Source of the DNA: Parcubacteria group bacterium GW2011_GWA1_40_21
Lineage (GTDB): Bacteria; Patescibacteriota; Minisyncoccia; Phycocordibacterales; GWA1-40-21
Assembly: GCA_000996205.1 (NCBI GenBank)
Contig: LBYO01000001.1
Span: 3,077 to 67,076, forward strand
DNA length: 64,000 nucleotides
Direction: 5' to 3'
The notes under the pieces are model-generated. The model saw nothing but the letters and a program-made list of their open reading frames with translations, searched no databases and had not been told where the DNA came from. Positions 5,708 to 5,816 of the stretch are shown here, one piece after another; positions within the stretch are counted from its first letter, which is position 1; each line of letters begins with the position of its first letter. Position numbers and translations under genes: made by a program.

Positions 5708-5816
5708 CCCCAAATTACAAAATGCAAAAATTTAGGTCTTCGGGTCGCAAAAGCTGTTTGTCTTTTAAATGTTTTTGCTCAACCAGACCATAAATTTTTA
5801 CATTTTGTAATTTGGT
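5708..5816. repeat. MITE-like palindromic repeat, copy 1 (inverted relative to copies 2-3)
   Basis: ~108 bp with terminal inverted repeats caaattacaaaatgcaaaaatttaggtc / gaccataaatttttacattttgtaatttg; reverse-complement of elements at 48353 and 52768. Confidence 0.7.

Follow-up and report, generated by a model that had tools for sequence, protein, structure and literature searches.

Correia elements (CREE/NEMIS) of Neisseria are non-coding, ~100-155 bp in length, bear terminal inverted repeats (TIRs) of ~26-30 bp, occur in tens to hundreds of intergenic copies and are co-transcribed as hairpins. To our knowledge, no transposase for these elements is known in the host genome. RUP of Streptococcus pneumoniae and ERIC/IRU of enterobacteria are imperfect palindromes of 107-127 bp that are dispersed in intergenic regions and whose mobilisation is believed to occur in trans; RUP, which targets TA, has the same ends as IS630-Spn1. 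The units of REP, 20-40 nt in length, do not duplicate their target and are linked to a RAYT gene. The MITEs SM1-SM4 of Sulfolobus are deletion derivatives or end-mimics of DDE insertion sequences, with variable multi-bp duplications and ends that can be shared by several families.

The family described here, three copies of which lie in the 64-kb stretch of DNA that was analysed (hereafter, the window), resembles the Correia elements in that it is small, non-coding and intergenic, forms a long hairpin and reaches many copies per small genome. Compared by description, it differs from them in duplicating 6-7 bp of its target rather than TA and in residing in an unrelated host phylum. An IHF site and outward promoters have been reported for Correia elements, whereas none are evident in the CPR family. 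Its size, palindromic structure and dispersed intergenic location recall RUP and ERIC/IRU. Unlike RUP, however, the CPR family has no known cognate insertion sequence, duplicates 6-7 bp and has longer and nearly perfect arms. The duplications are not the TA duplications of Correia/RUP-type (IS630/Tc1-like) elements, and on that ground the family does not fall into this class. With REP/BIME it has in common that it is a dispersed, hairpin-forming intergenic repeat, but it duplicates its target and is three to five times as long, and no RAYT gene was found near it. As in Sulfolobus, several families (A, B and C, described below) share their ends, CTTTGAATTACGAAAC; in contrast to SM1-SM4, whose parent insertion sequence is known, the parent was not found and the outermost 3-4 nt are unusually variable.

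Full-text literature searches, whose coverage was incomplete, returned no paper on MITEs in CPR, Patescibacteria or Parcubacteria. The family and its host group thus appear to be undescribed. The kind of element is well known, and the finding adds a family, not a new principle.

Three palindromic repeats in the window

The three repeats, which the original prediction had described as near-identical ~108-bp palindromic elements at these places, were recovered with the following refined ends.

5708-5817, minus strand: MITE-like repeat, copy 1; 110 bp; nhmmer score of 99 bits; the same copy was recovered in metagenome locus L355
48353-48462, plus strand: MITE-like repeat, copy 2; 110 bp; ends CCCCG...CGGGG
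52768-52875, plus strand: MITE-like repeat, copy 3; 108 bp; ends CCCCG...CGGAA

The ends were set by anchoring on the conserved AATT of each arm and lie 5 nt outside these anchors. The alignment among the three copies extends over ~110 bp with pairwise identities of 89-91%, so that the term near-identical was slightly generous. The core 21-mer GGTCTGGTTGAGCAAAAACAT occurred exactly three times in the window, compared with none in 100 shuffles.

All three copies are intergenic, following the 5S rRNA gene, the gene at 47517-48344 and the gene at 52483-52767, as had been proposed. Copy 1 starts 19 nt past the 5S rRNA gene (5581-5688), just beyond the stem that brackets the 5S precursor, and downstream of it lies a GC-rich terminator-like hairpin with a T-run, read by eye at ~5838-5866. 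It is flanked by an imperfect 6-bp duplication, AAAATA (5702-5707) and AAAATG (5818-5823). Copy 2 begins 8 nt beyond the stop codon of the gene at 47517-48344, and its flanks form a 7-bp duplication with one mismatch, TTATGCG (48346-48352) and TTATGTG (48463-48469). Copy 3 adjoins the stop codon of the gene at 52483-52767. On both sides it has TAATTAA (52761-52767 and 52876-52882) as a perfect 7-bp target-site duplication, and that stop codon is part of the left TAATTAA. The only ORFs overlapping copies 1 and 2 are chance ones of 51 aa without conservation, and the element has no coding capacity.

Anatomy and fold of the element

Members of the family are 108-114 bp in length, with a mode of 110. 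Each of the window copies folds as one long hairpin (-43 to -59 kcal/mol, z-scores of -7 to -12), whose stability is about equal on both strands. Two inverted-repeat arms of ~31 nt, in agreement with the TIRs of ~30 bp originally noted, have the conserved part (N3-4)GAATTACGAAAYRCAAAAATTTA and enclose an asymmetric core of ~46 nt, GGTCTGGTTGAGCAAAAAC...TTTTGCGACCCGAGGACC; the TIR and core strings first quoted for the repeat were correct. The outermost 3-4 nt are non-complementary and differ between subfamilies (TCTT, CTGT, CTAT, CCCC, TCCC and CTTT).

The arms change together. In an alignment of 68 distinct copies, 93% of the arm cells were paired, compared with 26-55% when the pairing was slid, and the number of pairs changed on both sides was 18, as opposed to 7.8 in shuffles. 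At the column pair 16/114, 33 copies have C-G and 30 have U-A. The chief polymorphism is that of the arm CpG, with ACGC/GCGT, ATGC/GCAT and ACAC/GTGT occurring mostly in matched combinations. In at least six copies from the genome MFAC01, the order of the ends is CTGTG..core..CAAGA and not TCTTG..core..CACAG. The end types are thus swapped relative to the core, which implies that inversion of the inter-arm spacer can occur. Such inversion and the matched changes of the arms would both be expected products of recombination or gene conversion between inverted repeats, a process by which the arms may stay complementary and the core may sometimes flip.

Target duplications and filled or empty sites

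Target-site duplications, which had been proposed as a check, were looked for and found. Among 51 complete copies of the genome set, 37 had exact flanking direct repeats of 5-7 bp (21 of 7 bp, 15 of 6 bp and one of 5 bp), compared with ~3 of 51 obtained by random pairing of flanks. When genomes and metagenomes were taken together, 61 of 113 non-redundant sites had exact duplications of 5-8 bp and 23 more had duplications within one mismatch, the size being 7 bp in 36 and 6 bp in 23. The target is AT-rich, roughly TAAATWA; 89% of the sites have T at position 1 and 75% have it at position 5. No recognisable duplication was present in 14 of the 51 genome-set copies and in 29 of the 113 sites overall; some of these copies reflect mis-anchoring of the boundary or decay.

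Alignment with related loci revealed occupied and unoccupied alleles in both directions. L314, from a related lineage with proteins 83-91% identical, has a single TAATTAA and no element at the spot of copy 3. In the reverse case, L314 carries a family copy (L314:2687-2795) just after a Mur-ligase gene, flanked by TAATTT on both sides, at a site that is empty in the window.

52366-52371, no strand assigned: unoccupied target site with a single TAATTT, identified by alignment with the filled site of L314; L347 also has a single TAATTT

L347, which represents a closer lineage, does have copy 3, with two substitutions in 108 positions. The flanks of copy 3 in the same alignment diverge by ~2%, counted by eye. 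The copy thus diverges about as fast as its flanks, so that once inserted it is not visibly under special constraint. In the syntenic blocks L020/L038 and L034/L049, each pair from different MAGs, the repeats occupy the same intergenic region but their duplications differ, which shows them to be independent insertions rather than ancient conserved ones. A comparison with the MAG REEB66 was tried for empty sites and abandoned, as its genes are 80-90% identical but its intergenic DNA is too diverged to align; the closer L314 was used instead. At the level of the target duplication and of filled and empty alleles, these results demonstrate the insertion mechanism.

Two arrangements of neighbouring elements were also observed. 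At L015:3713-3936 (MFAC01000021), a complete copy lies between two half-copies, which looks like a nested insertion. At L037:3038-3172 (MFAC01000002), a family A copy has entered a lone sister-family terminal motif, 10 nt inside it, and duplicated TATGTAT, indicating that the elements land in or beside one another.

Family size and host range

One genome per GTDB species was scanned with a core 19-mer. Of the 72 loci that were obtained, 63 were in five MAGs of Patescibacteria/CPR. The other nine, from other phyla, contained the 19-mer alone without the element and were set aside as chance matches. The five host MAGs are as follows.

Candidatus Campbellbacteria RIFCSPLOWO2_02_35_12 (MFAC01): at least 44 distinct complete copies in the 142 kb analysed
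H52-bin007_1 (JBBTTR01): at least 37 copies, of which 15 complete and 22 fragments at contig ends
REEB66 (JAGXAA01): 12 copies
H52-bin132_1 (JBBUED01): host MAG
MAG labelled Saccharibacteria (CAYIIG01): host MAG

An nhmmer profile built from complete copies detected ~104 copies in these loci, among them diverged copies without the 19-mer. The location of the 22 JBBTTR01 fragments at contig ends shows that this assembly is broken by the repeat. Independently, a 21-mer taken from the opposite side of the core identified 68 copies on 52 groundwater metagenome contigs, from Rifle and Hainich. The count of copies beyond the window, which the original prediction had called for, therefore exceeds 100 in other CPR genomes and metagenomes, and this rules out a family limited to the three copies, which had been named as a possible refutation. 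The family was found only in MAGs of Patescibacteria/CPR and in groundwater metagenomes (Rifle and Hainich). BLAST searches gave no match in phage or plasmid collections, and scans of IMG/VR with a 15-mer and a 16-mer gave only chance k-mer matches.

The window genes are most similar to those of REEB66, with 80-90% nucleotide identity. Copies within a MAG are 97% identical in JBBTTR01, 89% in MFAC01, where several subfamilies are present, and 83% in REEB66; the value for JBBTTR01 indicates a recent burst. Between MAGs, the best pairs of copies are 96-97% identical, whereas the GatB orthologue of the same genomes is only 60-71% identical at the protein level. As read from the alignment, the JBBTTR01 consensus and the main MFAC01 subfamily differ at ~5 of 110 positions. 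From the occurrence of near-identical subfamilies in very divergent hosts, we infer that the element, or whatever mobilises it, may have moved horizontally among co-occurring CPR lineages. Strong selection on transposition-competent master copies is an alternative.

A MITE family and its likely mode of movement

The repeats are small and non-coding, with inverted repeats, target duplications, insertion polymorphism and multiple dispersed copies. Taken together with the reciprocal filled and empty sites and with more than 100 copies, these features support the leading idea of the original prediction, a non-autonomous MITE-like mobile element. We consider that the three repeats are very probably members of a MITE family that lives in Patescibacteria/CPR (Parcubacteria-type) genomes. 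Counting against this are the failure to find a transposase, the variable outermost 3-4 nt, the conserved core and the copies without duplications. Conservation of the core equals that of the arms, of which a purely selfish MITE has no need; it is in part a matter of ascertainment, since core k-mers served as queries in both collection scans and inflate how conserved the core appears.

The element inserts into AT-rich heptamers (~TAAATWA) of intergenic DNA and duplicates 6-7 bp of the target. The mobilisation step itself would be carried out by a transposase that is supplied in trans, binds the shared terminal motif and cuts with a stagger of 6-7 bp. The variable duplication of 6-7 bp implies staggered cleavage by a DDE-type enzyme. 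DDE transposon ends normally keep their terminal dinucleotide conserved, and the variable terminal nucleotides found here are atypical for such an enzyme.

Sister families and the search for a transposase

CTTTGAATTACGAAAC is also the terminal motif of other small inverted-repeat elements, whose interiors are unrelated and which comprise at least two families (B and C). One family B element and one solitary motif lie in the window.

12157-12300, no strand assigned: family B element of ~144 bp with ends CTTTGAATTACGAAAC and an unrelated interior; further copies in L315, L335, L336 and L359
57513-57539, minus strand: solitary degenerate terminal motif (TTTACTTTGAATTGCGAAAG)

The latter is probably the remnant of a related element. 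Two copies of family C were found in L025 and one in L361; the other occurrences of CTTTGAATTACGAAAC were a 45-bp mini-palindrome in L026 and several solitary motifs. Where one transposase serves several MITE families, these typically have the same ends but different interiors. The common terminal motif of families A, B and C suggests that one enzyme may act on them in trans, and the same enzyme would then probably mobilise at least two small element families besides family A. As a separate observation, a perfect 74-nt tandem duplication lies at 12288-12435. It starts within the family B element, in the right arm (TCGTAATTCAAAGTAAAG...), and the palindrome ATTTTGGACATCCGATGTCCAAAAT is found in each unit.

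No transposase was found in the window when Pfam/NCBIfam models were searched against 40 of the 48 ORFs of at least 120 aa and one ORF of 94 aa; five of the remaining eight ORFs have precomputed Pfam hits. Neither a transposase nor an autonomous partner was found in ~0.75 Mb of related loci, nor in the IMG/VR, phage and plasmid collections, and no protein was multi-copy within any genome set. Several candidates were examined and rejected. Inverted pairs of CTTTGAATTACGAAAC lying 0.35-5 kb apart, as expected of an autonomous parent, were chance matches or neighbouring MITEs, and the ORFs between candidate pairs of terminal motifs corresponded to SmpB, a toxin-antitoxin pair and pilus genes. In L348, an internal half-copy that was considered as an insertion-sequence end proved to be a truncation. 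The ORF at 25831-26499 has an HTH_23 domain resembling a transposase N-terminus, but the remainder looks, by eye, like a LAGLIDADG-type homing endonuclease. The 3' end of this 222-aa ORF overlaps the start of a tRNA gene (26490-26562). At the orthologous spot next to ftsH, REEB66 has a copy of the repeat in place of this ORF.

On a broader proposal, the family would not be a mere passenger. A hairpin element could move horizontally between CPR lineages of different aquifers, by means of a transposase encoded outside the CPR genomes (host-, phage- or plasmid-borne) or by a non-canonical folded-single-strand mechanism that tolerates variable ends, and the strongly conserved core could be a functional module such as a protein-binding site or a small RNA. 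If true, a functional core module would explain why copies from different hosts are 95-97% identical when the GatB proteins of these hosts share only 60-71%. We regard this proposal, taken as a whole, as unlikely.

Relation to genes and possible roles as RNA

Of 77 copies that could be placed, 74 lie between long ORFs. Among the 55 copies with a gene within 400 nt on both sides, 40 lie between genes on the same strand, eight between convergent and seven between divergent genes. In the 40 same-strand pairs, the core is co-directional with the genes in 15 and opposite in 25. There is no apparent orientation bias, which argues against a strand-specific RNA role.

The original prediction had offered a structured RNA or terminator repeat as an alternative and proposed a search of Rfam. 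The search returned no family at the gathering threshold; a relaxed search returned at best generic plant miRNA-precursor hairpins at 36 bits, against cut-offs of 83-90. In consensus scans of the window copies, no T-run followed the stem, and neither a terminator nor a promoter consensus was detected inside. A terminator was rejected, the stem having no T-run behind it. A mobile promoter was rejected as well: the arm of other subfamilies, TTGAAT-N17-TATGGT, fits the consensus at only 8 of 12 positions, the window copies have CGAATT in its stead, the scanner finds no promoter inside the copies beyond chance, and the orientation relative to downstream genes is unbiased. Some of the solo promoter-like motifs TTGAAT-N18-TATAAT (L001:553) turned out to be truncated members of a sister element family.

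A functional reading of the hairpin deserves consideration nevertheless, namely that it is primarily a structured RNA or cis-regulatory hairpin (a terminator, mRNA stabiliser, RNase III site or small RNA) that is kept by selection and whose spread is incidental. Stability of the hairpin is very high (z-scores of -7 to -12), and compensatory changes maintain the pairing of its stem. Two positions, T43-G90 in 67 of 68 copies and T38-G98 in 59 of 68, allow G-T/G-U pairing on the core plus strand only. The copies lie in transcribed intergenic spacers, one of them in the rRNA operon between the 5S rRNA gene and the terminator, and the core is conserved across divergent hosts. Against this, the orientation to genes is random (15 co-directional and 25 antisense, with eight convergent and seven divergent), and the window copies have neither a T-run after the stem nor a terminator or promoter consensus. 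Rfam offered only sub-threshold, generic long-hairpin models and no family. Insertion sites vary between close relatives, with precise empty sites, and copy 3 differs from its L347 orthologue at 2 of 108 positions, about the same rate as the flanks (~2%). We thus disfavour a dedicated structured RNA or terminator, the random gene orientation and the stem without a T-run weighing against it, and consider a primarily functional RNA quite improbable.

Under the preferred MITE reading, an inserted element would be transcribed together with the genes around it and form a very stable hairpin, whichever way it is oriented. A secondary effect of this predicted hairpin on host transcripts is possible; any effect on RNA processing or stability would be a by-product and not the reason for the existence of the element.

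Possible movement as hairpin DNA and the question of artefacts

A dispersed, hairpin-forming intergenic repeat might also be a REP/BIME-like or PATE-like palindrome, moved via hairpin DNA by an HUH transposase (RAYT or a TnpA of the IS200/IS605 type). Covariation of the arms is expected if a folded single strand is the substrate, and terminal nucleotides that are not conserved are unlike typical DDE transposon ends. HUH insertion, however, proceeds without target duplication, whereas duplications of 6-7 bp are the rule here and are confirmed by empty sites. In addition, an element of 110 bp with 31-nt arms is far larger than REP units, and no RAYT or TnpA gene was found in the window. We consider this explanation highly improbable.

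Loci carrying the window copies were gathered by exact-protein look-ups of flanking genes (the flanking protein is annotated from a 'Parcubacteria group bacterium' MAG), with contigs taken from ENA, JGI and NCBI assemblies of different Rifle groundwater samples. The same insertion was present in all 28 fetched loci, copy 2 being unchanged in eight and copy 3 in 20; one of these assemblies is GCA_000995985.1 (contig LBYE01000023.1). Copies 2 and 3 turn up again in many independent assemblies, which excludes the assembly artefacts that had been named at the outset as a possible refutation. Palindromic repeats often cause mis-assembly, and many JBBTTR01 copies are at contig ends, but the identical insertions across independent assemblies, samples and pipelines, and the more than 100 distinct sites in several genomes and two aquifers, leave virtually no room for an assembly or binning artefact or a repeat confined to a single contig, a reading that is already refuted.

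Other features of the window

Both rRNA genes in the window are interrupted, as is typical of CPR. The match of the 23S rRNA gene (1-5225) ends at ~2565 (model position 2643) and resumes at 4971-5214 (model positions 2654-2912). The insert of ~2.4 kb contains group I intron-like matches at 3154-3379 and 3661-4057, and LAGLIDADG ORFs at 2621-3226 and 4277-4768. The 16S rRNA gene (17880-21140) has 2360 nt, compared with a model of 1533 positions. Within it lie a group I intron (19115-19332) and, further on, a LAGLIDADG ORF (20045-20947) and a group I-like match (20969-21138). A tRNA gene at 21446-21519 has a partial duplicate at 21565-21625, 106 nt later, which is 100% identical over 57 nt and has a tRNA score of only 33 bits.

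Short C/A-rich tandem motifs (CCTACAACCTA / CCTAAAACCTACAA) are present at 5904-5943, 10634-10701 and 13917-13970. They lie directly upstream of starts (ATG at 5940, ATG at 13967 and an ORF start at 10696), at the position expected of a Shine-Dalgarno sequence, and may represent an unusual translation-initiation leader. A perfect palindrome of 25 nt, TCTGTGGGTATCAGATACCCACAGA, is identical at 56009-56033 and 57456-57480, upstream of two consecutive glycosyltransferase genes (56193-57371 and 57557-58789), and a variant lies at 9898-9925. The palindrome looks like a putative operator for a dimeric regulator. The gene at 28239-30752 encodes an 837-aa protein with the shoulder and repeat domains of Major Vault Protein together with an SPFH/Band 7 domain, and this region is flanked by repeats of 50-151 nt at 27148, 27956 and 30837.

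Implications for CPR genomes

CPR/Patescibacteria have very small streamlined genomes that are generally regarded as poor in mobile DNA. The presence of dozens of MITE copies per genome, in several lineages and in aquifers on two continents, shows that CPR genomes sustain transposition bursts. The family may serve as a marker for recent gene flow between CPR lineages, and its copies explain contig breaks in CPR MAGs. Finally, the element introduces very stable predicted hairpins into operons, that of the rRNA genes among them, with a possible effect on RNA processing.
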